A DNA stretch of 56,830 nucleotides from a virus (Duplodnaviria; Caudoviricetes). Below the pieces are notes generated by a model. The model did no database searches. It was not told the origin of the DNA and saw only the letters and a list, made by a program, of their open reading frames with translations. Below are positions 9,016-43,261 of this stretch, piece after piece. A program made the position numbers and the translations under genes. The stretch is taken from IMG/VR virus record IMGVR_UViG_3300025872_000066, positions 1 to 56,830 of that record; one strand, written 5' to 3'. The stretch's first letter is position 1. The number at the start of each line of letters is the position of its first letter.

Positions 9016-9030
9016 GCGTTACTCCTTAGA

Positions 9031-10137: not shown

Positions 10138-10146
10138 GTGTTACTC

Positions 10147-11142: not shown

Positions 11143-11217
11143 CTCTTTCCTTTCAAGCGGCTAGGGGGTGCCTGTGGAAAGAGTGCCCAGCGTCTCCAAA
11201 CGGGAATCCGATTTTTG

Positions 11218-12838: not shown

Positions 12839-12840
12839 GG

Positions 12841-17602: not shown

Positions 17603-18304
17603 GAGGCGGCGCCGATACTGCTCCGGTGTACACTGCCGCCAACGGCCTCGGCCGCAAGCCGTTGTCGGGCCTCGGGTTAGGTGTCCGCTACGGTTTGGAT
17701 GCCGGATCGGCCATCGTCCGGCCTGCCGCTGTGGTGCGGCTGGTTCTCTGTGGTGTGCGGTGGTGCCCGGGCGGCGGCGGCGGTCGCGGCCGGGTCGCGT
17801 GGGCCGTGCATTGCCCCTCGGCCTCCCTCCCTCCCGGCCGCGTGGACCAGGCGGCGAGCGTCGCGGGCGGTGCGTCGGCCTGGTGCCGGGCGTCGCGGGC
17901 GTGTGCGGTGCGGCAGGTCTTTGTAGCGTCGGGCGTCTGCCATTCCCCGGGGCCGTGCGCGTCCGCTCGGGCCCATGCTGTTGGATCGTCACCGCGGCCG
18001 CGGATCACCCGCGGCCGTTGGCTGGCTCCATCGGTCCTCCCTTGGTTAGTGGTGCGGCCGGATCGCGACCGCCGGTTGTGGTGTACGGTAGCCGCCGGGG
18101 TTGGCTGTCCCCCGGCGGCGTGTGGCGCCGCTGCCGGTTGCAAGCCGGAGCGGCGGATGCGGCCTGACGGCTGGCCGGGGTCGCGGTGCGCGCTACCCTC
18201 GCCCGGTGCCGTACCCGTGTCGGGTTCGCCCCTGCCGGGGCTGTGGCCGTGTGCGGTTGCCCGGGCGGCGGCGCGTGGTCGCTGCCTGCCGCCCGGGCTT
18301 GCCC

Positions 18305-18979: not shown

Positions 18980-19028
18980 GGTATCGGTCCTCCGTTGGTT
19001 GTGCCGGTGTGTCAGCACCGGTGAGGGG

Positions 19029-19058
19029 ATTGTAAGGCAGTCCCCGGGGGCGTGTCAA
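19029..19058 (-). promoter_or_regulatory. sigma70-type promoter
   Basis: TTGACA-N18-TACAAT on the minus strand, 50 nt upstream of the 18979 start. Confidence 0.75.
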
Positions 19059-19089
19059 GTACATCGTCCCCCGGGGCTGTGTGACTGTA

Positions 19090-19302
19090 TCAAACCTGCC
19101 GCATGGTACGGGTGATCACCTGCCCGTTATCCGCAGTGTACCGGGCGTGGAGCGTCGTTCCACGGCGGCGGCCGACAACCTGCCAGCGGGCTGCCGTCAC
19201 TCGGACGGCGGCGTCGATGTTCATCACCCGATGGCGGTGCATGTCAGTGACCACCCGGCCGCGAGGGCCGCGGTAATCGGCGGTGAGTTCAACTGTCCAC
19301 AT
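19090..19302 (-). CDS. small hypothetical protein
   Basis: ATG 19302 with AGGAG RBS; 70 aa MWTVELTADY... Confidence 0.65.
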   Translation of the reverse strand: MWTVELTADYRGPRGRVVTDMHRHRVMNIDAAVRVTAARWQVVGRRRGTTLHARYTADNGQVITRTMRQV

Positions 19303-19379
19303 AGGGCAGTCTCCTGGATGGGGAAGGAATGAAGCCGGAGCCGCCCCCGTGCGGCGTGGCACGGGGGCGGGTGCCGGAC

Positions 19380-19583
19380 TCACGCCTTGACGAAGGCGGT
19401 GAGGCCGACCTTGACAACCTGCCCGTCGACCGTGATCGGCGTCGGCTGGTTGCCGTGGGTGCTGGCGACGATCTTCGTCTTCCCGGTGGACGAGAGCGGC
19501 GGGTTCGCGTTCACCGGGATTCGGACGACCAGCGTCGCGGGCTGCGTCTTGGTGGCGGGTTCCAGGGTGTAGGTGGCGGACAT
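19380..19583 (-). CDS. small conserved protein (S.[ST]GKT..VAST.GN motif)
   Basis: 67 aa, PLSSTGKTKIVASTHGN; GGAG RBS. Confidence 0.75.
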   Translation of the reverse strand: MSATYTLEPATKTQPATLVVRIPVNANPPLSSTGKTKIVASTHGNQPTPITVDGQVVKVGLTAFVKA

Positions 19584-19801
19584 GGTAGGGCTCCGTTGGT
19601 TGCCCGGGTCGCTGGGCGGCGGGCGGGCCGTTCGTCGGCTCGCCACCTACTAGCCGGGACCGGGGCCGCGAGATTTTCCGGTTTTTTGGCGGCGCCGGTC
19701 CCGGCTTATTAAGTCGGCGGTTCGCGCCGCCGTCGCGGCCGGTTTTCCGGCCGTTTTCCCCTGGTTTTCCCGCTGAAAACAGGGGTTTTCCCAGTGTAGA
19801 C

Positions 19802-19838
19802 TGTACGGCTGTTCACCTCCCCGGTGGACGGCCGTACA
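19802..19838. promoter_or_regulatory. tandem palindromic operator-like boxes in the divergent control region
   Basis: TGTAC-GGCT-GTTCA (19802-19815) and TGGAC-GGCC-GTACA (19825-19838). Confidence 0.55.
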
Positions 19839-19893
19839 CCACCGCCGGCTCCCCGCCGGCCGGTGACGGGTGCGGGCAGCGATGGGGCTGCCT

Positions 19894-19941
19894 GGACCGT
19901 GCGGACAGCGGTGTTGCTCACAGGACCGTGCGGACAGCGGT
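19894..19941 (+). repeat. 19-bp perfect direct repeat, two copies
   Basis: GGACCGTGCGGACAGCGGT at 19894-19912 and 19923-19941. Confidence 0.9.
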
Positions 19942-19962
19942 CACACCACAACGGAGAGTGTC

Positions 19963-20847
19963 ATGGCTTACAAAATTGCGACAATCCTGCAGGACGGTGA
20001 CAACAATGCGAAGATCCGACACCATGGAGATGAGTACAAGGTCTATGGGATCTCCCTGGCATCGTCTGACTCCTCTGGGTTCAACTCCTGCCCACGGGCT
20101 CTGAGGCGGTCTGTCCTGCAGGAGATGCTGGACAATGGGATGGATATCCAGGAGATCGGGCAGTGGGCCAATCGCAGGGGGCTCTCCCTGTGTTCTGGCC
20201 CCTGTGTGACCTGGGAGGCAGGCCACGGGCAGTCGGACTTCGTCAGGGATGCACGCATCAACCTGACCAAGTGGCTGTATGAGAACCCCAGGTCATTCGG
20301 AGCCTACCTCCGGCGTGACATGGACCGGGTGGAGCGGAACCGCGGTGACTACATCGTCGCTGCCCGCACCAACATCGACAGTGACGTCAACTGGCTGTCA
20401 CTGTTTCCCTGGATGTACGACTACAACTGGCGGTTCTGGGACTACACCAAATGCTCTGAGCGTCTGGGCAAGACCCCCAGTAACTATCACCTGACCTACA
20501 GTTACAACGACGGCACACAGGCCAAGGACTGGGAGCGTGTGTATCGCACCAAGTCCAACGTGGCAGTGGTGTTTGACACCGTGTGGAACCCGTGGGGTAG
20601 CGAGTTTGGCTACCTCCCCGCCACCTGGACTGACCCCAACGGGAAGGTCTGGCCTGTGGTGGACGGTGACCGGCTGGAACTGCGGTTCCTGGACCCGGTG
20701 GATGTGTGTGTCGGCCTGCGGCTGAAGGCTGCCGGCGACAAGCGTGAAGATGCGTGCGAGTCGGAGTTTGCAGTGCCGACCGGCATTGACCAGGTGGGGA
20801 ACGTACACCCCGCCGATGCTGAGCCCGGCCACTACCTGGCAGCGTGA
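19963..20847 (+). CDS. GP88-like phage protein
   Basis: ATG 19963 after GGAG. CP...C...C, R.N.DSD..W, FWDYTK, NYHLTYS, NVAVVF, VDGD...RFLDP...VGLRLK. Confidence 0.75.
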   Translation: MAYKIATILQDGDNNAKIRHHGDEYKVYGISLASSDSSGFNSCPRALRRSVLQEMLDNGMDIQEIGQWANRRGLSLCSGPCVTWEAGHGQSDFVRDARINLTKWLYENPRSFGAYLRRDMDRVERNRGDYIVAARTNIDSDVNWLSLFPWMYDYNWRFWDYTKCSERLGKTPSNYHLTYSYNDGTQAKDWERVYRTKSNVAVVFDTVWNPWGSEFGYLPATWTDPNGKVWPVVDGDRLELRFLDPVDVCVGLRLKAAGDKREDACESEFAVPTGIDQVGNVHPADAEPGHYLAA

Positions 20848-29217: not shown

Positions 29218-29976
29218 ATGAAACTGTGGGGATACGTGCGAGTCAGCACCGATGACCAGCAGAACTCCGTGGCCAACCAGCAGGAGTTGATCCGCGACTA
29301 CGCCCGCAAGGCTGGCGTGATCGCCTGCATCTGCGTAGACGAGGACGTCACCGGCAAGTCTCCTCTGCGGAACCGGCCGCAGGGGAGACTGCTGTGGGAC
29401 GGGCTGAACCCTGGCGACACGGTGGTGTTCGCTAAGCATGACCGGGCGTTCCGGTCCCTGCGAGATGCTGCGGACACCGTTCACATCTGGCAGGAGCGTG
29501 GCGTCAGGGCCGTGTTTTTGAACCTCGGCCTGGACCTGGGCCGCCCCGAAGGCAGGTTGTTTTTCCACCAGTTGGCTTCGTTCGCTGAGTTTGAGCGTGA
29601 GCTGATTTCGCAGCGAGTCCGCGACTGCTTCGCTTACCTGAAGCAGCACAACCGCTGCCACGGGAACCGGCCTTTCGGGTGGACGAAGGACCGGCCTGGC
29701 AAGGGCGCTTACCTGATTCCGCTGGAGTCGGAGCGTGAGCTGGGCCAGCGTGTTTGCGGGCTGCACGCTGACGGGATGAGCTACCGGCAGATTGCGATGC
29801 TGCTCCTGGAGGAGCGGGTGACGAAGCCGGGGAAGCGGTCGATAGATCAGAAGGGCGGGATCTACAGTGTGTCGGACGTTCACGCTCTGTCTCTGGCGAC
29901 TCAGCAGGGATTCCCAGCCGTAGCGAGATCGTCCTTGCGAGTCGGCGGCTCGCCAGTGCAGCCGTCCGGATGTTGA
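29218..29976 (+). CDS. serine recombinase (resolvase/invertase family)
   Basis: GYVRVSTDDQ catalytic motif, DRAFRS, FAEFERELISQR, PFGW, C-terminal HTH SYRQIA. Confidence 0.9.
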   Translation: MKLWGYVRVSTDDQQNSVANQQELIRDYARKAGVIACICVDEDVTGKSPLRNRPQGRLLWDGLNPGDTVVFAKHDRAFRSLRDAADTVHIWQERGVRAVFLNLGLDLGRPEGRLFFHQLASFAEFERELISQRVRDCFAYLKQHNRCHGNRPFGWTKDRPGKGAYLIPLESERELGQRVCGLHADGMSYRQIAMLLLEERVTKPGKRSIDQKGGIYSVSDVHALSLATQQGFPAVARSSLRVGGSPVQPSGC

Positions 29977-30415
29977 TGGCGAACTCCTCCGACAGATCCA
30001 CCAGCCGCTTCTTCTCTACGAAGCGGTAGACCGCCATCTGCTGGTCGCGCTCTGGCATGCCGGCGATGGCGTCCTGGAGGTGGTCGATGGCGTCTTCATG
30101 GGCGAACGCCGCCTCGGCATCTTCCAGGGAGATCCGCTCCCCAGGCGTACGGGTCAGCCGCCTGATCGACTTTAGCATCGCGTTCAGGATAGCCCGGGCG
30201 AAATACTTCTTGGGGTAGGGCAACTTCGCCGGGTCGTACGTGCGGGCGGCACGGCACAGGGCCAGGAACCCCTCGCCCTCTAGGTCCGGGATGTACAGCG
30301 ACCGCTGCCAGCCAGGCCGGTTCTGGACGAAGTACCTGGCCACCTGCGTGACCATCTCTGAGTATTCAGCGACGAGCTGCTGTTGCCGCTTGGAGAGCCG
30401 TGATCGCCCGCTCAT
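29504..30415 (-). CDS. phage-encoded sigma-70 family factor (regions 2 and 4) with an unusual C-terminal extension
   Basis: DLEGEGFLALCRAARTYDP (region 2); LQDAIAGMPERDQQ...RF (region 4). Confidence 0.8.
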   Translation of the reverse strand: MSGRSRLSKRQQQLVAEYSEMVTQVARYFVQNRPGWQRSLYIPDLEGEGFLALCRAARTYDPAKLPYPKKYFARAILNAMLKSIRRLTRTPGERISLEDAEAAFAHEDAIDHLQDAIAGMPERDQQMAVYRFVEKKRLVDLSEEFAINIRTAALASRRLARTISLRLGIPAESPETERERPTHCRSRPSDLSTASPASSPAPPGAASQSAGSSSRQRAARKHAGPAHAPTPAESGKRPCQAGPSSTRKAGSRGSGCAASGKRSSRGLAAKSAHAQTQRTKPTGGKTTCLRGGPGPGRGSKTRP

Positions 30416-30566
30416 GTCGTTCCAACTGGACCTGGGTCTGATGCACCAGTTCCGGGAGCCCTTCCATGGCATGTGCGATCATCGTCACCTTCGCGTGCAT
30501 GCTCATGGCCCAGGGAACCACCGCCACCAAGACGGTGATGCCTATCAGTACCTGGTCAGTCGTCAT
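30366..30566 (-). CDS. small membrane protein (TM plus coiled coil)
   Basis: VLIGITVLVAVVPWA hydrophobic segment; C-terminal HERAITAL. Confidence 0.65.
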   Translation of the reverse strand: MTTDQVLIGITVLVAVVPWAMSMHAKVTMIAHAMEGLPELVHQTQVQLERHERAITALQAATAARR

Positions 30567-30741: not shown

Positions 30742-30959
30742 CGTCCATCGGGGCATGCTGCCCTCTCCGTGCAACTGCAGTCCGTCCAATGCTGTCCATC
30801 TCCCGTGCGAACCTTGCCGGTGCCACTGCACTTCACGCACTTGGGGTCGGCAGGCTTGGGCGGAGCGGGGGATGGGCTCGCCTGCTCGGCATCCAGCGCA
30901 GCGTGGATGGCGATGACGGCAACGTAGTGCGGGGTGTACTCGTTCCAGTAGAGCGGCAT
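30726..30959 (-). CDS. small protein with hydrophobic N-segment and DnaJ-type CxxCxGxG Zn finger
   Basis: CVKCSGTGKV...CSC, C-terminal CPDGRCP. Confidence 0.7.
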   Translation of the reverse strand: MPLYWNEYTPHYVAVIAIHAALDAEQASPSPAPPKPADPKCVKCSGTGKVRTGDGQHWTDCSCTERAACPDGRCPKP

Positions 30960-31897
30960 CAGATTCTCCCTATGCTACCCAGGTCAGGCAGCGGGCGGGC
31001 AGGGTAGCCCTGGACGTCGGAGTACGCCCAGATGTCTTCGCTCTCCACGCACGTGGCGTAGCCGGCATCGTCAGTGACGATCATGCCGGGGATCTGCTCG
31101 GGGTAGATCGATGGCCAGTCCTTGACCGGCTGGTTCCACCGCCCCCAGCTATTGGCTATGAACCAGACCCGGAACGGCCAGAACTCCTTTGTGTCGTCAT
31201 AGCCCACGGTGGCCATATCATGGGCCCATCCCGGGCTGACACGCGGGTGGATGTTCTTGCTGCTTGGCCTGTCGGACCAGGCTGCCATCTGCCCAGAGTG
31301 GATGCCGTACCCGTTGAACAGGGCATCCATGGCATCGTCCATGGTGCGGACAAGGGCGATGGTCCCCACCTTGTTGCGGTTGCACAGGTCCAGCACCGCC
31401 TTGGGGACGCCTGTCGATCCCCACCTGGCACCCAGGGCACCGTTGTAGACCGACAGATCCACCACGCCATCGAACTTCTGGCGTGCCAGGAAGCCCGTGT
31501 CGCGCTCAAACCTGGCCGCCCGGGCCGGGCTCATGCCTGCACCGGAGTGACCGCGGGCCCCGTACGTGGGCTCCGTGGCGGTGCGGACAACCCACTCCTC
31601 GGGCTTGCCCTTCAGCAGGATCGACACGGCGCGGCTGCAATCCCTGGCGTTCCGGCTCCCATGTGAGACACAGTCGCCTTCTGTCTGTTTTTCGCTGAAC
31701 GCACCTGGGTCCAGCTGCCGCACGTATCCCCAGAGCATGGCACGCTTCCCTTTCCCACTGCCAGGCGACTGGAACGAACGCAGCGGGTTCGTCTCCAGGA
31801 ACTCCATCTTCTCCCGTGGGCTCGGCACGTAGCCGGCCAGGCCGCCAAACTGGTAGGCCCGCACCAGCTCTTCTGTGCTGTCGAAGTCACCTGGCAT
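30959..31897 (-). CDS. papain-like (C1-type) cysteine peptidase
   Basis: QTEGDCVSHG (Gln, Cys), WAHDMATVGY (His), IANSWG (Asn). Confidence 0.85.
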   Translation of the reverse strand: MPGDFDSTEELVRAYQFGGLAGYVPSPREKMEFLETNPLRSFQSPGSGKGKRAMLWGYVRQLDPGAFSEKQTEGDCVSHGSRNARDCSRAVSILLKGKPEEWVVRTATEPTYGARGHSGAGMSPARAARFERDTGFLARQKFDGVVDLSVYNGALGARWGSTGVPKAVLDLCNRNKVGTIALVRTMDDAMDALFNGYGIHSGQMAAWSDRPSSKNIHPRVSPGWAHDMATVGYDDTKEFWPFRVWFIANSWGRWNQPVKDWPSIYPEQIPGMIVTDDAGYATCVESEDIWAYSDVQGYPARPLPDLGSIGRI

Positions 31898-32300
31898 CAG
31901 CGGCCACCTTCTGCAATGCCTTCACCAGGGCAGCCCGCTTGTTCGTCTCGCCGTCCAGGCCGGTGTTGTCCTTGCCAACCGCGGCCACCAGCTCGTCATC
32001 GATGGCCACATCCAGGCCGATGTACTTGCCGGGGAGGTCAGTCCCCTTGAAGGCCTCGTCCAGGCTTGTGGCATGCACCCGGCGGAACCCATCCATGGTG
32101 GTGATCGACTTGCTGCGGGACACCACATCCGCCATGGCATCGTAGAACGATGACACCCGCGTGCGATCCGCCTTGGTGGCTGGCCGCAGGGCCATGCCCA
32201 CCTTCGACACGGCGGCCGGAGGGGCGGGCTTGGGGACCTCGGGCATGAACGCCCAGATCAGGCCGACTGCCGCCAGGGCCGCGAAGACATGCTTCATCAT
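31887..32300 (-). CDS. signal-anchored/exported protein
   Basis: MMKHVFAALAAVGLIWAF followed by a Pro linker. Confidence 0.7.
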   Translation of the reverse strand: MMKHVFAALAAVGLIWAFMPEVPKPAPPAAVSKVGMALRPATKADRTRVSSFYDAMADVVSRSKSITTMDGFRRVHATSLDEAFKGTDLPGKYIGLDVAIDDELVAAVGKDNTGLDGETNKRAALVKALQKVAADAR

Positions 32301-32509
32301 TTGATTCCCAGCAGGGCCTCCATCAGGGCGTTGCATGCCTGCGTCACCTCGGGCGTGCGGTACGAGTCGCGCACGGCAATGACGTTGCGGATATGGGTCA
32401 GCAGGACAGGGGCCCGGCTTCCCTGAAAGGCCCACTGGACCAGCGGCCAGAGGTACATCACCGCCACGCCAGCGGCTGACAACAGTGCCACAATCTGAGT
32501 TGCCGTCAT
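32297..32509 (-). CDS. small membrane protein
   Basis: N-terminal TM IVALLSAAGVAVMYLWPLV; ATGA overlaps. Confidence 0.7.
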   Translation of the reverse strand: MTATQIVALLSAAGVAVMYLWPLVQWAFQGSRAPVLLTHIRNVIAVRDSYRTPEVTQACNALMEALLGIK

Positions 32510-33393
32510 ACGATCACCCTGCATCCGTTCCCAACCAGGCTGGTTGGATTGATTAAGCCCCACCCGTACATGCCGTCCTTGCCAGGATCCCCGGCATCCG
32601 TGGACGTCTCTCGGAGAATCTTGCTGGCCTTCTGCGCCAGGCCAGCCGTGCCGCACTTGCCGGCGTGCAACGCCAGGACGCCGGCCACAAACGGGGCGGC
32701 CATGCTTGTGCCAGAGAGGGTGGCGTACTTGCCACCCAGCCAGGCGCTGGTGATCTGATAGCCAGGGGCGGCAACGGCAATCTCACGCCCGCGGCAGCTG
32801 AACTCGCAGACCTGCCCATCCTGGTCCACGGCCCCAACGGCGATCACGCTGCCGTATGCCGCTGGGTAGTTGACACTGCCGCCGTCATTCCCAGCGGCGC
32901 AGACAACCGCAATACCCTGCTCTGCGGCATTGGCGCATGCCTCCTGCAGATACGGCACGCTGACAGGGCAGCCCAGGCTCATCACAATGATGTTGGCCTT
33001 GGCTTCAATGGCGGCATGGATCGCCTGCGTCACGTGCTGCAGTGATCCGGCGCCGTTGTTGTTTAGGACCTTGAACGACAGCAGCTCCGCCTGGGGAGCC
33101 ACGCCACGCATCGAACCCCTGCCGGCCAGGACGCCCGCCACATGGGTCCCGTGGCCGTTGGTGTCGTAAGGGCTGCAGTCGGTGGTGAAGTTGCGATGCT
33201 CCTTCACGGCACCCTCCATGGCCGGATGGCCGGGCTCTATTCCGGAATCCAGGATCGCCACCCGCACCCCGGCCCCCTGGTGCTGACTCCAGAGGGCCGG
33301 GATGCCGTACGCGGAGAGCGACCAGTCCACGCCGGAGGAGGGGAGGGCGTGTGCGACTGCCTCTACACGGTACGGTGGGAGGTGGCCGATCAC
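32506..33393 (-). CDS. subtilisin-like (S8) serine protease
   Basis: VAILDSG, NGHGTHVAG, AAGND, SGTSMAAPFVAG; GTG start at 33393 overlapping the upstream stop. Confidence 0.93.
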   Translation of the reverse strand: MIGHLPPYRVEAVAHALPSSGVDWSLSAYGIPALWSQHQGAGVRVAILDSGIEPGHPAMEGAVKEHRNFTTDCSPYDTNGHGTHVAGVLAGRGSMRGVAPQAELLSFKVLNNNGAGSLQHVTQAIHAAIEAKANIIVMSLGCPVSVPYLQEACANAAEQGIAVVCAAGNDGGSVNYPAAYGSVIAVGAVDQDGQVCEFSCRGREIAVAAPGYQITSAWLGGKYATLSGTSMAAPFVAGVLALHAGKCGTAGLAQKASKILRETSTDAGDPGKDGMYGWGLINPTSLVGNGCRVIV

Positions 33394-33716
33394 TTCTGGT
33401 TGCGCCTGGCGATGAAGACCTGGATGAGCGTCGAAACGATGGGCGCGACCACCGTCAGGAGAATCGGAATCGGGATCCCGTACTCCGCCTGGGCAGTGGC
33501 CATGACCTCGTCCTGCTCCTCGGCCGACAGGGCCTGGGCCTGGAACAGCGGGAAGGTTTCGATCACCGGCAGGACCGCCTTGGCGATCAGGTAAACGATC
33601 TCCAGCTTCTGCGAGAGGCTGAGACTGTCGCTCCAGCCGGCGACGATGTTGGCGATCTCCTTCAACACCGTGGTGTTGGACAGGAGCCACCGGACGATCA
33701 GGAACTTGTCAGTCAT
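33390..33716 (-). CDS. membrane protein, holin-like candidate
   Basis: Hydrophobic segments and a basic C-terminus (IARRNQK); AAGGAG RBS. Confidence 0.55.
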   Translation of the reverse strand: MTDKFLIVRWLLSNTTVLKEIANIVAGWSDSLSLSQKLEIVYLIAKAVLPVIETFPLFQAQALSAEEQDEVMATAQAEYGIPIPILLTVVAPIVSTLIQVFIARRNQK

Positions 33717-34104
33717 TTAGGGGCTCCTTGCGCCGTTCACAGGCAATAGCGACCACCGCATGGCCGGCGATGTCCATGAGGGTCTTCTGTCTAGTAATTG
33801 TCTCCAGCGGCCCCCTTAGCCGGCGGGTTTTCTCTCCGATCCTGGCCGTCTGGTACTGCCAGGCCGGGATGCCGTCCTGCTCCACGCCCAGGGCGTTTTC
33901 CAGGGGGTCTTCCTTGCACCCGTAATAGCTCCGCTTCCTGGTCAGGAGGCGGTACAGCTCGTCGCAAATCTCCCGGTAGGGGTCACCACTGATACTCCCT
34001 GCTGGCTCCGACAATGCGTCCGTATTCGGCCCAAAAGACGCTGTGATGGGGGTCTTCTTCCCGATCACACAGATACGCGGTTCTTGCATGTGCCCACTCC
34101 TCAC
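33709..34104 (-). CDS. DUF1599/Nmad1-like all-helical nucleotide-modification-associated protein
   Basis: RKRSYYG...RIGEK..RL...TLMDIAGHAV; true start uncertain because of overlap with the upstream gene. Confidence 0.6.
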   Translation of the reverse strand: MRSGHMQEPRICVIGKKTPITASFGPNTDALSEPAGSISGDPYREICDELYRLLTRKRSYYGCKEDPLENALGVEQDGIPAWQYQTARIGEKTRRLRGPLETITRQKTLMDIAGHAVVAIACERRKEPLND

Positions 34105-34321
34105 AGCATGTGTCTAAAAAACTATCCCGTGTCAGCGTGTTACTAATGACAATGAGCCCACGCATCTCATCCTCGTTGAACTCAAAGTACCCCAGCATCC
34201 CCGGCAGCTTGGCCGGGGGTCGCAGGTAGACTCTCACCGGATACGGCAGTGGGAAGTTCGCCTGTGCCCAGCGCCGAAAGCGCTTGAGCAGCCGCGGCCT
34301 CCAGTCTGGCGTGGAACTCAT
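33983..34321 (-). CDS. metallopeptidase-like protein (EEWAH variant of HExxH)
   Basis: DTCCEEWAHA...HHSVFW..YG. Confidence 0.55.
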   Translation of the reverse strand: MSSTPDWRPRLLKRFRRWAQANFPLPYPVRVYLRPPAKLPGMLGYFEFNEDEMRGLIVISNTLTRDSFLDTCCEEWAHARTAYLCDREEDPHHSVFWAEYGRIVGASREYQW

Positions 34322-34616
34322 ACAACCTCTCCAGCGGCAGCGTGATCAGCCACGGCTCCCTTGCCTTCTTGCTCAGGACCACCGGAACCAGGCCGCCTGA
34401 ATCCGCCTCGGCCTGCTTCATCCAGGACCGGATCGATTCCCGCTCTACGAACTTGACCTCCCAGTGGACGCCTTCCAGCTCCACCTCCAGGTCGGCCGAG
34501 TCGGCGCCCCCCTTGAATTGCACGCCACGCCTGGCCGGCAAGCGGATTGCCTGGGACACCGCTTTTGCGGCCAATCGCTCGCCCCTTTTCCCCTTCTCCC
34601 TCTGGCTACGGCCCAT
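34182..34616 (-). CDS. PD-(D/E)XK Holliday junction resolvase-like protein
   Basis: SQREKGKRGER, SADL, HWEVK, PWLITL. Confidence 0.8.
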   Translation of the reverse strand: MGRSQREKGKRGERLAAKAVSQAIRLPARRGVQFKGGADSADLEVELEGVHWEVKFVERESIRSWMKQAEADSGGLVPVVLSKKAREPWLITLPLERLYEFHARLEAAAAQALSALGTGELPTAVSGESLPATPGQAAGDAGVL

Positions 34617-34881
34617 GCTTGGTCCTCACAAACAGCGGCCCATCGGGCCCCACGTACGCCCCCAGGGTGTTGAAGCTCAGGTACTCCACGGCCTCGTCCT
34701 CAGACAGGCCGTCCTCCATCAGCTTCTGGACGCAGGCATTCAGGTCGTACACGGCCACTACCGGGTGGTGGTGGTTGCATGTGTAGCCAATCAGGGCGTC
34801 TTCAAACCCGTCCGCCAGGAGAGCCTCGGGGTTCTCCTCGGCCAGGTCAGCGAACAAGTCTTCCGGTGGGATGGCGATCAT
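34606..34881 (-). CDS. conserved phage protein (ADG.D.A.IG...EA.EY..FN..GAY.G family)
   Basis: LADGFEDALIG, VAVYD, EAVEYLSFNTLGAYVG. Confidence 0.8.
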   Translation of the reverse strand: MIAIPPEDLFADLAEENPEALLADGFEDALIGYTCNHHHPVVAVYDLNACVQKLMEDGLSEDEAVEYLSFNTLGAYVGPDGPLFVRTKHGP

Positions 34882-35285
34882 GGCTTCCTTGCCCTGGTCA
34901 GGTTGATCTCACGCTCGTTCAGATACCACTCGTCCGGCGGCTCGGGCTCGTAGCCCAGGTGCCGCTTCATCCGCAGGCTGGCGAGGTACTCCGGGTCGTA
35001 GTTCTCTGGGTCCGACTGCTCCTTAGCCCACAGCAGTGTGCTTTTGTACAGCGGCGGGAAGTTCCCGGCAACCAAACCGTCATGTAAAACGTCATGGCAC
35101 CGGCCGCAGAGCCGGAGGTAATTCCGGACGTCATGCCTTCGCCCGGCTCCACCCTGAAGGTGATGCACCTCCAGCTGGCGGCGGCCATCAGACTCCGGCC
35201 ACCAGCACACGGCACAGCAGCGGTGGTACTGCACCCAATCCGCGATGGCGGCCCGCTCGGCCTTAGTCATCCGTGCCATGTACAT
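34878..35285 (-). CDS. HNH endonuclease
   Basis: CAVC...LEVHH...NYLRLCGRCHDVLH. Confidence 0.8.
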   Translation of the reverse strand: MYMARMTKAERAAIADWVQYHRCCAVCWWPESDGRRQLEVHHLQGGAGRRHDVRNYLRLCGRCHDVLHDGLVAGNFPPLYKSTLLWAKEQSDPENYDPEYLASLRMKRHLGYEPEPPDEWYLNEREINLTRARKP

Positions 35286-35567
35286 TCCTCAGCGCAGACC
35301 CATTCCCTGCTGAGAGGCAAGGGGTTGACTCTCAGTTGGCCCAGTGGCCACCAATGGCTGCCTTATCGTTAGGCTCTCAGCTATCGACCGGGACGCATGG
35401 GGGGTGCTGGATCTAGTACCAGCGCGTTGCCCGGCTTTCGCGCAACCATTAGCCAACTTGTGCGGACTAGCCGCTCCTGCATAGGCAGGCGTTTGTTTAT
35501 GCTCGCGCTTTTGGTTAACAGCCGGCGGGTGCTGCGAGAAGATGAACCGCCTCGGGGGAACTGTGTA

Positions 35568-35756
35568 CTACCTAGGGCCGGTGTCGGCAACAAAAGTCAT
35601 GTGCGGACACTGGGCCGGAGTTTTATTGACGAGGTTCTCTAGCTCAGTAAGCCTCGCCCGCATGGACTCTGCGGTGTGTCTGTACTGTGCAATGACGTCC
35701 TCTAGCTGGACGATCCGATGCAGGAGGAAAAGAGCGTCTTCACTGCTCATATGCAC
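35568..35756 (-). CDS. small coiled-coil protein
   Basis: 62 aa helical ORF coupled to the upstream gene. Confidence 0.5.
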   Translation of the reverse strand: MHMSSEDALFLLHRIVQLEDVIAQYRHTAESMRARLTELENLVNKTPAQCPHMTFVADTGPR

Positions 35757-35968
35757 CTCTTAACTGGCACCTCTGGGTGCGGAATGTCGTACATTTCGTT
35801 GCCCATGACTCTCACTTCTGCGGAGTCAACGTGTACTACCTCGCCTGTGTCGAACCGCTGTACTACCCAGACGCTGTTCAGGTGCGGCCCGTAGTCGATC
35901 AGCACCAGGGCGAACCCTTCACCGAGAGGCGTGGCAACCCAGATCGGCGGGTTTAACTGGAGCATCAT
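35747..35968 (-). CDS. conserved small phage protein (QLNPPI.V.TP.G...IDYG family)
   Basis: MLQLNPPIWVATPLGEG...IDYG...WVV. Confidence 0.75.
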   Translation of the reverse strand: MMLQLNPPIWVATPLGEGFALVLIDYGPHLNSVWVVQRFDTGEVVHVDSAEVRVMGNEMYDIPHPEVPVKRCI

Positions 35969-36301
35969 TTGGCCATCATCCACAGGCCGATGTTGGCTAC
36001 TGCATAGGACGCCCAAGTAATAAAACCAGGCACGTTTTTCTTACATAACTGCTCGCAAGCTACGTAGGCGTAGATGCACATGGTCAATAGGATCAGGTGT
36101 CTGCTCATGCTGTCAACTGTCACTTTCCGCCAGTTTGTGGGCGTTCGCGTTATGCGGCAGATAAGCCGTAGAACACGCTGGTCCGCTTTTCTGATTTAAG
36201 CTGAAGCCCCTGCGCCGCATCGACTTCCACCGCACGGCCCGGAACGCCTTGGGACGTTACCCAGCAAGCCGGTCGTTTATACGGGTCTGCAGAAACACTG
36301 G

Positions 36302-36586
36302 TTATGCGAATGAAAAATGCCGCTTACCAGATTGCGGCGACGGTGTTGAGCCCCGTCGGTTCGCCTTGCCCGCCCGGCTCGGAGGCTCGGCCATACGTCG
36401 CATCACCCACCGACAATAGGCAAGGAGTGGCGGCACCGGGAGATCATCCCGGCCTCGTACTCTCGGCGCGCTTTCCGATTTCCTTAGTCGCGTCACTTGC
36501 CGCCGTCGCTCCATCAAATGTCGTTCACGCATAACCACGCGATACAGCGGACTCGCGAGAGCGTCGGTTGGTTTGTTCATGGTCAT
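36302..36586 (-). CDS. cassette C ORF (Arg-rich; may be non-coding)
   Basis: ATG inside attC3, stop TAA inside the GCATAAC box. Confidence 0.35.
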   Translation of the reverse strand: MTMNKPTDALASPLYRVVMRERHLMERRRQVTRLRKSESAPRVRGRDDLPVPPLLAYCRWVMRRMAEPPSRAGKANRRGSTPSPQSGKRHFSFA

Positions 36587-36618
36587 AGGTCGCGGGCCGC
36601 TGATCGCTGGCGTTCTAT
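36529..36618 (-). repeat. attC-like site 3
   Basis: ATAGAAC...GATCAGCGG...CCGCTG(T)ATC...GTTATGC with one extra-helical base. Confidence 0.75.
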
Positions 36619-36827
36619 TACTCGCTCCAGCCACACCACGCGCATTGACCAGTAGCAACGACAGGACTCCAGTTCTCTCGCCCTCGCTCGCCGCAGCACG
36701 CATAGCACCGAACAAGAAATAGCCGGCCTTTGCTGTCCCGAAAGTTTGGCGACCGATCCTGCAACGTCATAGAGCCAGCGGATGCAGAAGACGGCTCGGC
36801 ACCGCCCTGCGTGTTATCATCGCTCAT
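36618..36827 (-). CDS. cassette B ORF, small Zn-ribbon protein
   Basis: MSDDNTQGGAEPSSASAGS leader, then RCYAC...REN...CAWCG. Confidence 0.65.
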   Translation of the reverse strand: MSDDNTQGGAEPSSASAGSMTLQDRSPNFRDSKGRLFLVRCYACCGERGRENWSPVVATGQCAWCGWSE

Positions 36828-36858
36828 AGTTCGCCGCCCCTGATCCTTGTCGTTCTCA
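36769..36858 (-). repeat. attC-like site 2
   Basis: TGAGAAC...GATCAG...CTG(C)ATC...GCTCTAT (GTT core mutated); close copy of site 1. Confidence 0.7.
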
Positions 36859-37116
36859 CTGCACCGTTTCGCAGCCTTCTGATGAACCGTTTCGCAGATC
36901 GCCTTCCTCTGGCCGCAAACCCAGATCGCCACTCGTTTCCCACTCTGGACGCAACCTGATGAGCAGCGACAGCAGGATGCCGTAGTCCCCCATGCAGGCG
37001 ATTCGGCCTTCGACCACAACGTATTCCAGCGCGTCGATCTCGGCCTCTGACAGCCCGTGAGAACCAGCGGATGCAGGAGACGGCTCGGCACCGCCCTGCG
37101 TGTTGTCAGTGTTCAT
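36856..37116 (-). CDS. cassette A ORF, hypothetical
   Basis: MNTDNTQGGAEPSPASAGS leader; stop TGA inside TGAGAAC. Confidence 0.65.
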   Translation of the reverse strand: MNTDNTQGGAEPSPASAGSHGLSEAEIDALEYVVVEGRIACMGDYGILLSLLIRLRPEWETSGDLGLRPEEGDLRNGSSEGCETVQ

Positions 37117-37147
37117 CGCTCGCCGCTCCTGATCCTTGTCGGTCGGT
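37058..37147 (-). repeat. attC-like site 1
   Basis: GATCAGGAG...CTCCTG(C)ATC...GTTCTCA; the R'' AAC is degenerate (ACC). Confidence 0.7.
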
Positions 37148-37374
37148 CATGTCTTGTCCTCCTCGTTGGCCCACAGCAGCGCAGCCTGCTCATCCCAGCA
37201 GTCAGCACGCCCAATGTCGAACCAGTGGGGGAAATGCCGCAGCACAGCCCTCGCCTCCTGGCGTACCTCTCGGCGGATCCCCTTGATGCCGCCCTCCACG
37301 TAGACGTTGGAGAGCCGCACCAGGAAATTGCGGGCGAGGAGGACCGCCAGCGTTCGTTCGCATGGAAGGGTCAT
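37147..37374 (-). CDS. conserved small protein (MT.P.ERT.AV...FL...LRHFP family)
   Basis: MTLPCERTLAV, ARAVLRHFP. Confidence 0.7.
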   Translation of the reverse strand: MTLPCERTLAVLLARNFLVRLSNVYVEGGIKGIRREVRQEARAVLRHFPHWFDIGRADCWDEQAALLWANEEDKT

Positions 37375-37637
37375 GGCCAATTCGGGTACAGCAGCACGCC
37401 GCACCGCGTCTCCTGGTCCAGGACCTCAACCGCAGCCGTCCGCGGGAACTCGCCGGAGATCAGGGCACAGATGCCATCAAACGGCATCTTCGCCAGCATC
37501 TCCGAATGCTCGTCGCAGTAGGTCTGGATCGCCGCGTGATCGCAGGCGAACCCAGGATCGCCATCGCCGCAGTTGACCCACACCCGCAGCGTGAACCGCG
37601 GCGTGCTGACGGCCACCATGTTTTCCCTAATCTTCAT
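37371..37637 (-). CDS. hypothetical protein
   Basis: ATG 37637 after AGGAGG; ATGA overlap. Confidence 0.65.
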   Translation of the reverse strand: MKIRENMVAVSTPRFTLRVWVNCGDGDPGFACDHAAIQTYCDEHSEMLAKMPFDGICALISGEFPRTAAVEVLDQETRCGVLLYPNWP

Positions 37638-37696
37638 CGCGGACCTCCTTGCTATCGCGGACCACCAACTCTTCCCCTGGGACGTCTCCCCAGGAG

Positions 37697-38287
37697 TCAA
37701 CCAGGATCTTTCGGAGCCTTGCGACCTCGGCCTCTAGGCGTCGGATCGCACTTGTCAGCCGGCGGTTCTTCGCCTCGGAAGCCGCCAACGTCTCCTTCCA
37801 CCCACTGCAGGGCGTCTTGCCTGAACAGGATGCTGCACAGCTCGTCTGCGTGTCGCAGGTGCTTGCTGGGTGCGACGAGCGTGGGCACGTTGAAACCACG
37901 CATGGAGTCCCAGACGGTCTGCTCGGTCCAGCTTTCGTCCTGGTCAAGGACAGAGAGCCAGACCCAGGCTCCGGTGTGCTGGGAGATGTAGATCCAGGCG
38001 AATGGTTTTCCACGGCTGAGTCCGTTCAGGTCGTCAACGAATACTGTGGGGTAAGGGAAGTCATCCGGCCCTGTGAACTGCAGGCTGCGAACCTTGATCT
38101 CCAGGGACACGGCCGCCACGGCGTCTGGCGTCGGGCAGAAGTCCTTCTTGGGATTGTGGTCTGGCAGTACGAGCTTGACCCCGTGCGCTATAGCGAGCCC
38201 ACGGTCGCGCTGCGTCTCCACCCACGCCTTCTCCGCCTTGTGGGCAATCTTTAAGACGCTCAGAAAGCGGTCTTTCGTCCAGGCCAT
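37697..38287 (-). CDS. PD-(D/E)XK-type nuclease-like protein
   Basis: AE...TPD...LEIKVRS; GGAGG RBS. Confidence 0.6.
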   Translation of the reverse strand: MAWTKDRFLSVLKIAHKAEKAWVETQRDRGLAIAHGVKLVLPDHNPKKDFCPTPDAVAAVSLEIKVRSLQFTGPDDFPYPTVFVDDLNGLSRGKPFAWIYISQHTGAWVWLSVLDQDESWTEQTVWDSMRGFNVPTLVAPSKHLRHADELCSILFRQDALQWVEGDVGGFRGEEPPADKCDPTPRGRGRKAPKDPG

Positions 38288-38774
38288 TGCCCCTCCATGT
38301 GCTGCGAACGTCCGCGGCTCTCGCCGCCGCTTCCTGCGGATGGACGTCCTCTTCAGTCAGGTCTTCCCACAGCTCCGTGCTGAGGGGCTCCGTGCGCCGA
38401 ATGGTCGATGCCATGCGGGCACACTCTTCAACAGCGTCAACCGTGACGGCGAAGGCCGCTGCGATCTCGGCGTACGTCCGTTCCGGGTAATCCAGAGACA
38501 GGACCATCAAACGCTTGGTGGTAGGGAGCCCGTGCCGCTTCAGCAGCATGGTCATCCGCTTGCCGACTTCCTCGCTCAGCTCCAGCTCCCCCCACACCTT
38601 CCGCGGCGGCTCCTGGTTGATCACCACCCGGCGATACAGCACTGGCGCAACGGCCAGAGGAACGCCAGCCGAACCAACCCTTAATTCGTTGCCACCAAGT
38701 TTGCACGGCCTCATCCTTCTCCTCCTCCATGGGTTCAAACGGGAACACTTCATCCAGGTGAAACAGGTCAGCAA
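38061..38774 (-). CDS. HTH-containing hypothetical protein; boundaries uncertain
   Basis: TYAEIAAAFAVTVDAV HTH-like segment. The ORF 3' end overlaps the next gene by more than 200 nt. Confidence 0.45.
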   Translation of the reverse strand: MLTCFTWMKCSRLNPWRRRRMRPCKLGGNELRVGSAGVPLAVAPVLYRRVVINQEPPRKVWGELELSEEVGKRMTMLLKRHGLPTTKRLMVLSLDYPERTYAEIAAAFAVTVDAVEECARMASTIRRTEPLSTELWEDLTEEDVHPQEAAARAADVRSTWRGNGLDERPLSERLKDCPQGGEGVGGDAARPWARYSARGQARTARPQSQEGLLPDARRRGGRVPGDQGSQPAVHRAG

Positions 38775-38782
38775 TCTGTTCT

Positions 38783-40297
38783 TCAGTTACGGACAAGAGC
38801 ACGCCGTCTAGCCTTCTCTTTGGCGAAGAAGGAGCGCTGCCATCCGGCGAGGCTGCGGTTTCTGAGGGCCCATTCGATGTAGTCATCGTCAACCTCTCCC
38901 ATCGTTCGACCGGCGTACCGCCCACGCAGCGGCACCCGGTACTCCGAGATGTCTTTCTTGCGACCGTCCAGCGAGACGTCGCGGCCATGCACCTTGCCGC
39001 CGGCCTGGCCTTCCATGCCCTTCAGCCCGGCTTCGATCAGCTTGGCCTTGCGGACGTCATCCGCGGCCTGCTCCAGCAGGTCAGCCGGATCCTCGGCCTC
39101 AGCGTCATCATCGGCTGCACGCCTGCGGGCCTCGGCCAGGACCTCACGTGGCGTTCCTTCCTCAGCGAACATGTCCACGCCCGTGCGGATGGAGTGGTTC
39201 TCCACGCTGTCGGTGACGTCAACAATCTTGAACCAGGGCTTCTCGCTCGCAGCGATGGCGGCAATCCGTGCCGCGGGCGTGTTCTCCGCACCATCCACCA
39301 CACCAGGCAGCGGGCGAGTGGCACGCCCCCAAATCTGCAGGGCCAACGTCCGGCTCTTCGTCGGCCGGAACATGAAGATCGTCTGCGTCAGCGGAGCGTC
39401 GAAGCCCATGGTGGCGATCTGACAGTTGCACAGCAGGTCGATCTCGCCGGCCCGGTACTTGTTGATGATCCGGTTCCGCTCGTCCTGGGTCTGCAGGTAC
39501 TCGTTGCCGCAGATCCACGCGGCCCGCATGCCGTAGTTCTTCTCAGCCATCTCAGCGAGAGCGCGGGCGCTGGCCACGCCGGGGAGGAAAGCGATGGCCG
39601 CGCCAACGCGCTCCCGCTGGATGGTGAGGCAGAACTGATGAAGCCTGGAGCTGACGCCGATCACCATCTCCAGGTCGGCAGCGGAGTAGTCGCCTCCGGT
39701 CACCTTGACCTTGCTCAGGTCCAGGTCGGCACACTGAACGACACGGGCTCGGGGCGGCACGCACCAGCCGTCCTTGATACCCTGGGCCAGGCCGTAGTCG
39801 AACGCCACGTGCTGGTAGAACTTCATCAGCGGCTTGCCGTCCATCCGGAACGGCGTGGCCGTGAAGCCGATGACGATGGCTCCGTTGGCCTGGAACTCCC
39901 GGAGCATCTCCAGAAACGGCTCTGAGAACTGCGTGTGGGCCTCGTCTACGATGACCAGGCGAACGCCCAGAAGCCTCTTGTAACGCTTCTCTTTGCCGGC
40001 CAGGAGCGTGTTTCGGCAGGCCACCGTGACGCGGTTGCCGCCCGCCCAGGAGCCGGCCATCTCAACGTCCGTGTACTCCTCCGTGATTCGGTCGGCCGTG
40101 TCAGCCGCCTGCCAGACCAGCTCCCGCATGGGGGCGATGATCAGGATCTTGCTGTTGAACAGCATCTTGGCGAGCAGCGAGAAGATCACCGTCTTCCCGG
40201 CGCCCGTGAACAGGACACACAGGATGGCCGTGAAACCCTTCGCCGTGGCGTCCAGAATCGCATCGCAGCACTGCTGCTGGTAATCCCTTGCCTGCAT
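38783..40297 (-). CDS. superfamily 2 (DExH) helicase
   Basis: RDYQ, TGAGKT, VDEAH, GFTATP, TMGFDAP, QIWGRATR; GGAGG RBS. Confidence 0.92.
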   Translation of the reverse strand: MQARDYQQQCCDAILDATAKGFTAILCVLFTGAGKTVIFSLLAKMLFNSKILIIAPMRELVWQAADTADRITEEYTDVEMAGSWAGGNRVTVACRNTLLAGKEKRYKRLLGVRLVIVDEAHTQFSEPFLEMLREFQANGAIVIGFTATPFRMDGKPLMKFYQHVAFDYGLAQGIKDGWCVPPRARVVQCADLDLSKVKVTGGDYSAADLEMVIGVSSRLHQFCLTIQRERVGAAIAFLPGVASARALAEMAEKNYGMRAAWICGNEYLQTQDERNRIINKYRAGEIDLLCNCQIATMGFDAPLTQTIFMFRPTKSRTLALQIWGRATRPLPGVVDGAENTPAARIAAIAASEKPWFKIVDVTDSVENHSIRTGVDMFAEEGTPREVLAEARRRAADDDAEAEDPADLLEQAADDVRKAKLIEAGLKGMEGQAGGKVHGRDVSLDGRKKDISEYRVPLRGRYAGRTMGEVDDDYIEWALRNRSLAGWQRSFFAKEKARRRALVRN

Positions 40298-42263: not shown

Positions 42264-42439
42264 GTGTCGCCTCCCTCAGCAGGACAAGAGCCTTCTGAGG
42301 GTGGCCGATGACCAGCATGGTCACGGCCGCCGCCACGCAAGTGGCGGCAATGGCAAGGGATCGCAGGCAGCTAGACAACTGAGCTAGTTGCCCGCGCCCC
42401 TTGACAAACCTCAGAAATGCGGAATTGTCGGGGTACATC

Positions 42440-43261
42440 ATGCTACTCACTGACTTTGCGAAACGCTACGCCAACCGCGTAGGGGCTTCTCCAGGCTATT
42501 TGGAGCAGCTTTTGGTGTTCACCAAGCGCCTGGACTGGCAGGTGGAGGAGATCACCACCGAAATGGTGGACTCCTACTTGACTGCCGCTCTGGGGGGTTT
42601 GAGCCCCAATACAGTCGCCAATCACCGCAGACTCCTCACAACCCTCATGCGCGAAGCTAATCGCACCGGCCTGAACACGTGTATAGCGAATGGATTCCGC
42701 CGCGTCAAGGTGCCTAGGCCGATCCCCAGGGCGCTGTCGCATGCGGAGATTCGTCAGGCAGTAGAAGCTGCCCGGCAGACGCCCGGTCATTTCCGTGACC
42801 TCCAAAAGTCCGACTTCCTTGTCGCCTGGTTCTTGACCGCGTATTCGCTAGGCCTGCGTGCGGGCGACCTAGTCGAAATCCGGTGGGATCAAGTACGTGG
42901 GCGGAAAATCTATCTGGGCCAATCGAAGACGTCAACTCCCCATGTCTCGCTTTTTACTGACGAGGCGTTGTGCGCGTGTAAGGCCCTTCCGAAGCGCACG
43001 CGGATCTTTGGGGACTTCGCTGCGCTCAACACAATCCAGCAGTGGGTGAAGGCCTGCATGGTGAGCGCAGGCCTGGATGCGTCAACGAAGTTCCTGCGAC
43101 GCTCAGCCGCGACATATGCCAAGGTCCAGGGCAAGTCGCCCAAGGCGGTGCTGGGGCATTTGACCGAAGGCCTAGCCGAAAGGCACTACGTCGATCAGCT
43201 GCTGTACGAAGAGGAGACTGGCCTGAACCAGGAGCCCCTGCCGTCCGTGATGGGCGCCTAG
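42440..43261 (+). CDS. tyrosine recombinase/integrase
   Basis: GLRAGDL (R), SKT (K), KFLRRS (HxxR variant), VLGH, RHY (Y). Confidence 0.88.
   Translation: MLLTDFAKRYANRVGASPGYLEQLLVFTKRLDWQVEEITTEMVDSYLTAALGGLSPNTVANHRRLLTTLMREANRTGLNTCIANGFRRVKVPRPIPRALSHAEIRQAVEAARQTPGHFRDLQKSDFLVAWFLTAYSLGLRAGDLVEIRWDQVRGRKIYLGQSKTSTPHVSLFTDEALCACKALPKRTRIFGDFAALNTIQQWVKACMVSAGLDASTKFLRRSAATYAKVQGKSPKAVLGHLTEGLAERHYVDQLLYEEETGLNQEPLPSVMGA

Follow-up and report, generated by a model that had tools for sequence, protein, structure and literature searches.

We propose that three 88-nucleotide (nt) repeats on the minus strand of the phage record IMGVR_UViG_3300025872_000066, a virus sequence of 56,830 bases that is rated complete and constitutes the whole window of this study, are integron attC sites. 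In this very probable reading they delimit an array of three gene cassettes in the accessory region of a Planctomycetota phage, and the loop of each site supplies the start codon of the open reading frame (ORF) behind it. An earlier note on this DNA had termed the repeats attC-like. Their structure and covariation, their geometry and the adjacency of integron integrase (IntI) genes to the same elements in Planctomycetota chromosomes identify them as true attC sites, and the element family is the one used by the chromosomal integrons of this phylum. In the phage arrays the start codon stands within the loop in a preferred frame, and coding takes place on the strand that is known in attC sites as the bottom one. 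Because the record holds three attC sites and no IntI, the window contains a three-cassette CALIN (a cluster of attC sites that has no integron integrase), defined as at least two attC sites without an intI gene nearby in the description of Cury et al. (2016; PMC4889954).

A covariance model derived from 50 copies recovers the three elements (Table 1) with E-values of 2e-21 for attC_A, 1e-21 for attC_B and 1e-12 for attC_C; the next match in the window has an E-value of 0.43. All three sites fit within 617 nt. attC_A and attC_B form an 85-nt direct repeat (37060-37144 versus 36771-36855, 88% identical) with a 27-nt core that occurs exactly twice in the window and in none of 100 shuffles, and the third copy resembles the other two only over its first 39 nt and in its fold. 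Folded as DNA, attC_A reproduces the stem with its two bulges (-15.7 kcal/mol, z -0.38), and attC_C reaches -15.9 kcal/mol (z -2.0). The ATGs pointed out in the earlier note lie within the terminal loop, at element position 31 in attC_A and attC_B and at positions 32 and 38 in attC_C, and they are indeed in frame with the downstream cassettes, opening ORFs of 86, 69 and 94 codons. Each window site departs from the family at one nearly invariant position, with ACC for AAC in attC_A, GCT for GTT in attC_B and a T as the near bulge in attC_C; at the middle base pair of the AAC/GTT triplets, the first two are the only departures among 50 aligned copies. Judged from their letters, the three sites may be decaying as recombination substrates and yet persist as translation starts.

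The hairpin is supported by compensatory change. In 50 distinct copies 92.1% of the alignment cells pair compared to 83.3% after shuffling, and 74 cells have changed on both sides compared to 22.7, a count reached by 0 of 500 shuffles; slid controls pair in 30-48%. The corresponding values for 150 distinct copies from bacterial genomes are 91.5% versus 74.6% and 450 versus 138 double changes, again with 0 of 500 shuffles reaching the observed count and with slid controls at 27-38%. Eleven of the 14 long-stem pairs show compensatory changes in these genome copies, whose three outer box pairs co-vary too, and diverged copies keep the three-part stem through full compensatory changes. Two of the alignments comprise the best 150 of 173 viral matches and the best 150 of 208 genome matches. 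The AAC/GTT columns are paired in 72, 72 and 71 of 73 distinct rows (one row being cut at its 5' end) and, for the genomes, in 149, 149 and 147 of 150 rows.

The geometry follows that of known attC sites. According to the account of Nivina et al. (2016; PMC5027507), the bottom strand carries AAC in its 5' box and is cut by IntI between A and C. The two or three extrahelical bases sit on the arm of the GTT box with a stem of 6 base pairs (bp) that separates the first of them from the last, the far one being a conserved T and the near one usually a G, while the spacers are unpaired and 5-6 nt long and the terminal structure ranges from 3 nt to a long one (PMC5027507). In the family described here, the 5' spacer measures 5 nt in 201 of 203 viral and 133 of 136 genome copies, and the 3' spacer before the GTT box 4 nt in 198 and 134 of them, respectively. 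The near bulge is a C in 202 of the viral and 135 of the genome copies; the far bulge is a T, at a distance of exactly 6 bp, in 192 and 120. We infer that the positions 16 and 23 given for the bulges of attCaadA7 in PMC5027507 are counted from the 3' end of the 7-nt GTT box, and on this count the present bulges occupy the same positions. The sites fall into classes of 47, 53-56 or 83-95 nt that differ only in the loop, the inner part between the arms being 4-5, 10-13 or 40-47 nt long. AAC is mostly preceded by GAG or CAG in phages and by CCG, GCG or CAG in genomes; CCT, which fits the RYYYAAC consensus, precedes it in 7 of 136 genome copies. Since only three nucleotides are common to all attC sites (PMC5371416), we regard this mismatch in the box flanks as a difference between families and not as a disqualifier.

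The elements are widespread and separate very diverse genes. A degenerate pattern of the arms matches at least 120 viral and at least 120 bacterial-genome stretches, and the covariance model was applied to 81 of 138 viral loci (24 + 57) and to 60 of 120 genome loci. The 24 are contigs that share the exact loop 20-mer; all 24 carry the whole element and continue with different sequence and diverse genes, a pattern far beyond chance. The DNA evidence answers the earlier question of whether diverse C-termini follow the common start. Profile and covariance searches yielded 81 copies in these loci, 173 in the 57 further viral loci and 208 in the 60 genome loci. Among the 80 genome matches listed, the large majority are metagenome-assembled genomes of Planctomycetota (Pirellulales, Planctomycetaceae, Planctomycetia, Kuenenia). 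A 15-mer scan of genome contigs gave chance matches only, with 0 of 120 loci carrying the element according to nhmmer. Within five whole genomes, copies group into arrays. The longest phage array, in locus L179, has at least 17 copies. In 82 of 82 loci the elements are confined to a single strand, and neighbouring copies are separated by a median of 278 nt (145 gaps). Clustering of the 144 cassette bodies gives 139 groups at a nucleotide identity of 75%; at the protein level, with the leader removed, there are 102 clusters, of which 95 are singletons, five are pairs and two are families with 20 and 19 members. Conservation is therefore far stronger in the repeats than in the genes between them. 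No clear linkage was seen between the type of element and the upstream or downstream cassette (medians of 0.705 and 0.682 versus backgrounds of 0.678 and 0.705). A regular-expression scanner of our own proved too loose, with 252 matches on reversed versus 891 on real sequence, and was used solely to add 19 short sites near known ones. The largest ORF cluster of the cassette regions consists of L016:1052-1393, of about 113 amino acids, and 129 relatives in 82 loci, a cluster that was made with the shared leader retained and may link unrelated ORFs; its members end in ...LLERTK or similar, with the stop codon inside the next AAC box.

Host chromosomes provide the link with the integrase. An intI gene lies directly beside the array in four of the five array-bearing genomes (TIGR02249, 430-465 bits; cut-off 265), none of 14 control genomes passes this cut-off, and tblastn with one host IntI finds relatives at 54% identity or more in 13 of 120 genome loci. 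The arrays of one of these genomes (G001) are flanked by ordinary chromosomal genes. Host cassettes match methyltransferases, DUF4262, a beta-lactamase-fold protein, DUF2442, EamA, an esterase and an AAA_21 ATPase. In G001, Pfam matches occur in five of seven ORFs opposite the bulge-bearing strand, plus a DUF2442 beside the array, compared to none of three ORFs on the bulge strand, and in two further loci (L295 and L308) in four of six versus none of four. As all Pfam-supported host cassette ORFs run opposite the bulges, in the same direction as intI, the hosts have the usual layout of an ORF followed by its attC, and the designation of the bulge strand as the bottom strand is confirmed independently. 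The intI gene of these Planctomycetota chromosomal integrons faces the array with its 3' end and shares the direction of the cassette ORFs. In the usual integron intI is divergent from the cassettes; a group with an 'inverted integrase' is known as well. The array region 2170-12739 of L382 (G001:C6:1-20000) contains a duplicated pair of methyltransferase and DUF4262 cassettes and a PF00144 beta-lactamase-fold cassette, and a DUF2442 gene lies just past the last detected attC. In the phages, TIGR02249 matches neither the window nor any of five further phage records, of which two have a completeness of at least 98%, and tblastn with the host IntI finds nothing in 138 viral loci or in the window, which without intI is not a complete integron.

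The phage cassettes are built the other way round. Their ORFs run on the attC bottom strand, and each attC thus stands at the 5' end of its own ORF. Mismatches in 44 homologous cassette pairs number 229, 158 and 397 at codon positions 1, 2 and 3 of the predicted frame; the coding strand was judged from such counts and from Pfam matches, longest-ORF counts being uninformative in GC-rich DNA. A start inside the site, with an ORF running at least 30 codons past the element, is present in 150 of 179 long phage attCs and is ATG in 138 of these. As to the frame conservation between loop start and GTT core that the earlier note had asked for, 127 of the 150 inside starts share one frame relative to GTT, and the other two frames are used 22 times and once. 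A tetramer resembling the Shine-Dalgarno (SD) sequence precedes 126 of the 138 ATGs by 4-14 nt, compared to 42% at control positions, and overlaps the 5' arm in 56 and lies within the loop in 70 cases. For 34 short elements the start is found downstream in 19 and at the GTT box in eight; their seven nominal 'inside' starts are probably noise caused by GTG or TTG codons. Host loops carry a start signal in 72 of 144 cases versus 66 of 137 on the opposite-strand control, with mixed start types and frames. An SD combined with an open in-frame ATG is present in 0 of 27 long attCs from loci that also hold IntI and in 9 of 119 from other genome loci, all in five loci that look phage-derived. The loop-borne start is specific to phages and lineage-wide in phage arrays.

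Translation from the loop ATG through the 3' arm and the GTT box would give unrelated proteins similar N-termini. Indeed, ORFs A and B agree at 17 of the first 19 residues but show little similarity beyond, so the common leader described earlier stands for these two; the leader of copy C is unrelated. The end of the leader, which reads EPS(P/S)ASAGS in the window, results from translation of the 3' arm, the spacer and the GTT box, and the pattern ...S-x-A-S-x-G-S recurs in unrelated proteins. In stem variants the residues change radically with the pairing kept (e.g., ERSVASAGS, AGSAPMLGS, MSAASRGS), and 115 distinct leaders occur among 138 sites. Since the residues vary while the pairing is kept, it is the fold that is under selection rather than the peptide. 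The leader looks like a by-product that arises when a conserved recombination site is translated, and the suggestion that it could be a tag is not borne out.

The limits of the cassettes would follow from the cut. With the published AA|C cut placed upstream of the loop, a single cassette would contain SD, ATG, leader and ORF body, and insertion would make no fusion. In agreement with these limits, cassette C is 97% identical to a cassette of another viral locus (L017) from the AGAAC of the attC to the stop-bearing CATAAC, and the two loci are unrelated outside. The CATAAC box opens the next attC in L017; in the window no hairpin follows and there is no model match downstream. Neither the position of the cut nor this AAC-to-AAC unit supports the earlier proposal that incoming cassettes can be expressed as N-terminal fusions. 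In L017 a 47-nt loop-less attC precedes the same ORF, and the conserved start of cassette C is therefore more likely the ATG that directly follows the GTT box, the 18-codon extension from the loop being optional. The alternative of a start downstream of the GTT core, named in the earlier note as a case that would speak against the loop, thus applies to cassette C, the loop-less relative of which starts in or after the GTT box.

Shared stretches between loci provided 48 alignment ends inside elements of both partners. Left ends lie at element positions 1-4 in 12 of 27 cases and right ends at positions 7-8 in 7 of 21; the remaining ends spread across the loop and 5' arm and into the beginning of the 3' arm. 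Because many ends fall inside arms or loop, homologous recombination also acts on the arrays. L005:4340-4427 is a chimera of two loop types in which the inner stem no longer pairs, and together with the scattered ends it indicates that leaders and ORFs are brought into new combinations by exchange within the conserved arms. The ERF recombinase, nuclease, single-strand binding protein (SSB) and RusA of the phage may perform this exchange. In contigs of one DNA run (X1), the 45-nt loop of attC_C (36551-36595) is swapped for 2 or 5 letters, the 2-letter variant being the 47-nt short form of attC_C, and a long/short polymorphism of one attC thus occurs within a population.

Several observations weigh against our interpretation. 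Single-sequence folding is unexceptional for the three window sites (z -0.4, +0.3 and -2.0), and the minimum-energy DNA fold of attC_B (z +0.3) departs from that of an attC. Most boxes read GAGAAC/GTTCTC and do not follow the consensus RYYYAAC/GTTRRRY, the near extrahelical base is a C where a G is usual in the published account, the 3' spacer has 4 nt compared to the published 5-6 nt, and the 47-nt short sites fall below the quoted range of 57-141 bp. Box pairing beyond AAC/GTT is weak in the phage copies (83.7%), and the agreement in bulge positions depends on an origin of numbering that we supplied. The strand assignment in the hosts is based on ORFs with Pfam matches in three arrays. Cassettes B and C contain in-frame ATGs at or after the GTT box. 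In addition, 13 of 27 left and 14 of 21 right ends of shared stretches lie inside the arms or the loop, so that the shared stretches locate the AA|C point approximately and not to the base.

Other explanations have to be set against these data. Crossover could take place at the GTT box downstream of the loop, by which a startless cassette would be fused to a resident loop ATG and leader. Long and short sites do serve the same ORF, as seen for cassette C versus L017 and for the short-loop variants of attC_C in run X1, and four left ends map to the 3' arm, at 22 nt from the element end, and a further one to 14 nt from that end. A stretch shared by L008 and L167 begins 7 nt before the end of the L008 element, with no element listed at the matching position of L167, and top strands recombine about 1000 times less often, which is not never (PMC5371416). 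We nevertheless consider this fusion very unlikely: the cut described in PMC5027507 is made at the AAC of the bottom-strand 5' box upstream of the loop, the cleanest shared unit (cassette C/L017) runs from AAC to AAC, and the 12 of 27 left ends at positions 1-4 imply that the whole attC travels with the downstream ORF, while ordinary recombination between similar arms explains the breakpoints in the 3' arm. That the elements are nothing but regulatory repeats of phages which shuffle genes by homologous recombination, without any role of an integrase, is also very improbable. Such repeats, comparable to those of T4-type phages and mycobacteriophages discussed below, would account for breakpoints scattered over arms and loop, for the chimera in L005, for the ERF, PDDEXK nuclease, SSB and RusA genes, for the lack of IntI in the six phage records searched and for elements far more alike than the flanked genes (144 bodies in 139 clusters). 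Yet a family of the same geometry adjoins bona fide IntI in host chromosomes, compensatory changes reveal selection on a folded single strand that homology-driven exchange does not need, and region 36200-37500 has neither a sigma-70-like promoter nor a minus-strand terminator. Homologous exchange probably acts too and leaves the structure unexplained.

A rather unlikely, though more substantial, alternative is that the hairpin works mainly as RNA, gating each small ORF through coupling to the upstream one or through a regulator, so that attC ancestry would be a matter of history. The sites would be transcribed in the folding sense, the mRNA having the bottom-strand sequence and hence folding. 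The SD overlaps the 5' arm in many sites and lies in the loop in the others, the upstream stop codon overlaps the 5' box, and the loop hardly varies in length. In the long stem of the sense strand, G.T outnumber A.C pairs 19 to 8, and each window site has lost a residue expected to matter for recombination and kept SD and ATG. However, the excess of G.T is small and equally expected for single-stranded DNA of that strand, Rfam gives no match, and the identities and spacings of the bulges are the same in host arrays with ORFs on the opposite strand, from which it follows that the recombinase, and no function of the RNA, dictates the bulges. Further candidates were dropped. A translational hairpin that hides the SD fits attC_A, with AGGAG in the stem, and fails on variants with the SD in the loop and on the loop-less 47-nt forms. 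A promoter for an extracytoplasmic function (ECF) sigma factor, read as 'GAAC, 17 nt, CGTC', agrees by eye with the 47-nt form and no other; its presumed consensus is not used as support. An RNase III site, a REP/RAYT element and an N4-type hairpin promoter were set aside on the basis of the IntI linkage.

Returning to the attC interpretation, each unit comprises, in gene sense, an AAC box, a 5-nt unpaired spacer, the 5' arm, a variable loop, a 3' arm that bears an extrahelical T, 6 bp of stem, a second extrahelical base (C), four spacer nucleotides and the GTT box. In the form of about 88 nt, the loop is filled with an SD, an ATG and about ten codons, and translation would truly initiate at the loop ATG. 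A host IntI would move the phage cassettes in trans, cutting AA|C upstream of the loop. Integron cassettes usually consist of a promoterless ORF followed by its attC and are expressed from the promoter of the platform. The phage arrays have the opposite layout, with an attC that comes first and contributes ribosome-binding site, start codon and initial residues. Tentatively, and as a possibility we would not yet rate at even chances, Planctomycetota phages may keep a distinct class of cassettes in which the ORF lies on the bottom strand, the loop is the translation initiation region, IntI acts in trans and recombination in the arms re-pairs leaders and ORFs. If so, each cassette would be self-sufficient in translation wherever it is transcribed, independent of attI and the promoter Pc, and phage arrays would act as a reservoir of new small genes and also as the workshop for them. 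The mRNA hairpin of the bottom strand may in addition couple the translation of each ORF to the preceding one. These considerations bear on the open questions of where cassettes originate and how those far from the platform promoter are expressed, and they offer a concrete, testable case of a recombination site that doubles as a coding and translational signal. For annotation, they explain the low-complexity N-terminus common to many unrelated small phage proteins, which should be taken neither for a domain nor for a targeting signal.

Among known systems, the integron and its CALINs come closest. Common features are the imperfect hairpin, the AAC/GTT boxes, an unpaired central spacer (though of 4 nt on the 3' arm), a pair of extrahelical bases at a distance of 6 bp and a terminal structure that varies, as well as one-directional arrays of diverse small cassettes with IntI beside the arrays of the host phylum and not found in the phages. 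The family differs in having its phage ORFs on the bottom strand with the attC 5' of the ORF, in a phage loop that holds SD, ATG and about ten codons with translation of the 3' arm, and in its C instead of G at the near position, GAGAAC/GTTCTC boxes and fixed size classes of 47, 53-56 and 86-89 nt. Searches of open-access text found no earlier account of an attC loop that contains a start codon. Qi et al. (2023; PMC9892861) report 17 CALINs in phages and 21 phages with integron parts, an association called infrequent in their account, and found that five of six tested phage attCs recombine with attI1. Set against this 'infrequent' association, one phage locus has at least 17 sites and the family occurs in at least 120 viral stretches, by which phage CALINs are extended from a handful to a whole group of environmental phages and Planctomycetota phages are indicated as carriers of integron cassettes. 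The PeSL (promoter early stem-loop), a mobile regulatory cassette of T4-type phages, combines a strong sigma-70-like early promoter with a terminator stem-loop, as described by Arbiol et al. (2010; PMC2839356). Similar to the present elements, these short conserved repeats flank small non-essential ORFs in plastic phage regions and show breakpoints of modular shuffling. The window array, on the other hand, gave no sigma-70-type promoter-like site and no minus-strand terminator-like site and shows attC geometry, covariation and a start inside the hairpin. Comeau and colleagues reportedly devoted a further paper to PeSL cassettes in 2014. In Cluster K mycobacteriophages, the 13-bp start-associated sequence (SAS) lies upstream of the start and contains AGGAG, mostly followed by ATG, and the extended form (ESAS) adds imperfect inverted repeats for which, in the account of Pope et al. 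(2011; PMC3203893), paired changes gave little hairpin support. SAS/ESAS resemble the window family as repeats of one orientation at the starts of non-structural genes from different families; what sets the latter apart are abundant compensatory changes, the start in the loop and the link to integron integrases.

Table 1. Coordinates of the attC array, its cassettes and the recombinase and integrase genes discussed in the text.
Feature	Position	Strand	Remarks
attC_A	37059..37146	-	5' box 37146-37141, ACC where AAC is usual
attC_A inner parts		-	5-nt spacer; 5' arm 37135-37122; loop ATG 37116-37114
attC_A 3' side		-	Extrahelical T 37080; 6-bp stem; extrahelical C 37073; 4-nt spacer 37068-37065; GTT 37064-37062
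attC_B	36770..36857	-	5' box GAGAAC overlaps TGA stop of ORF A; loop ATG 36827-36825
attC_B 3' side		-	Extrahelical T 36791 and C 36784; box GCT (36775-36773) replaces GTT; two G.T pairs in 6-bp stem
attC_C	36530..36617	-	Diverged stem type, compensatory changes; loop ATGs 36586 and 36580
attC_C 3' side		-	Extrahelical T 36551; second extrahelical base 36544 is T, usually C; GTT 36535-36533, directly followed by ATG 36532-36530
Cassette ORF A	36856..37116	-	86 aa; start in attC_A loop; TGA stop in attC_B 5' box
Cassette ORF B	36618..36827	-	69 aa from loop ATG; further in-frame ATG 36770-36768 just past 3' box
Cassette ORF C	36302..36586	-	94 aa from loop ATG; TAA stop inside lone CATAAC box
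Lone 5'-type box CATAAC	36301..36306	-	Array end; L017 homology ends exactly there
Upstream small ORF	37147..37374	-	TGA stop 37149-37147 abuts attC_A
Divergent tyrosine recombinase of the phage, not an integron integrase	42401..43261	+	PF00589, 24.3 bits, below cut-off of 27.1
Host intI	G001:C6:716-1660		Array 2069-13696
Host intI	G005:C19:6874-7815		Array 668-6105
Host intI	G002:C47:3385-4326		Array 136-2839

Within the phage record, the minus-strand genes between about 30 and 47 kb encode an ERF recombinase, a PDDEXK nuclease, an SSB, a helicase, RusA, an HNH endonuclease and an ECF-type sigma factor. The tyrosine recombinase of the phage has XerC as its best NCBIfam match and is, at 22.7 bits, weakly Xer-like. 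A PHROG search assigned no family to ORF A or ORF B. A scan for the sigma-70-type consensus found 0 promoter sites in 36200-37500, no terminator was found there on the minus strand, the Rfam scan of 33000-39000 matched no family, and a search of phage GenBank entries with 36300-37450 gave no relative besides one 55-nt match at chance level. A metatranscriptome contig spans 36320-36489 in cassette ORF C, which indicates presence in an RNA library only; among the contigs of the one true metatranscriptome, none reaches an attC element. Joints in the RNA runs whose shorter side has about 20 letters (36616/37058 and 36858/37060) were left out of account.

Further along the minus strand, the ECF-type sigma factor gene is located at 29504-30472 (TIGR02937, 45.3 bits; cut-off 42.9), and a subtilase gene at 32506-33690 (Peptidase_S8, 176.8 bits) sits between the accessory region and the sigma factor gene. 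Two proteins encoded at 30959-31897 and 31887-32435, also on the minus strand, have no Pfam or NCBIfam family. Depending on the method, homologues of the former are present in 27-28 and of the latter in 9-26 array-bearing viral loci, at about 4 kb from the arrays; both are core genes of the array-bearing phage group. Finally, region 18001-20000 has a G+C content of 70%, compared to about 62% in the rest of the window, and a strong AT skew.

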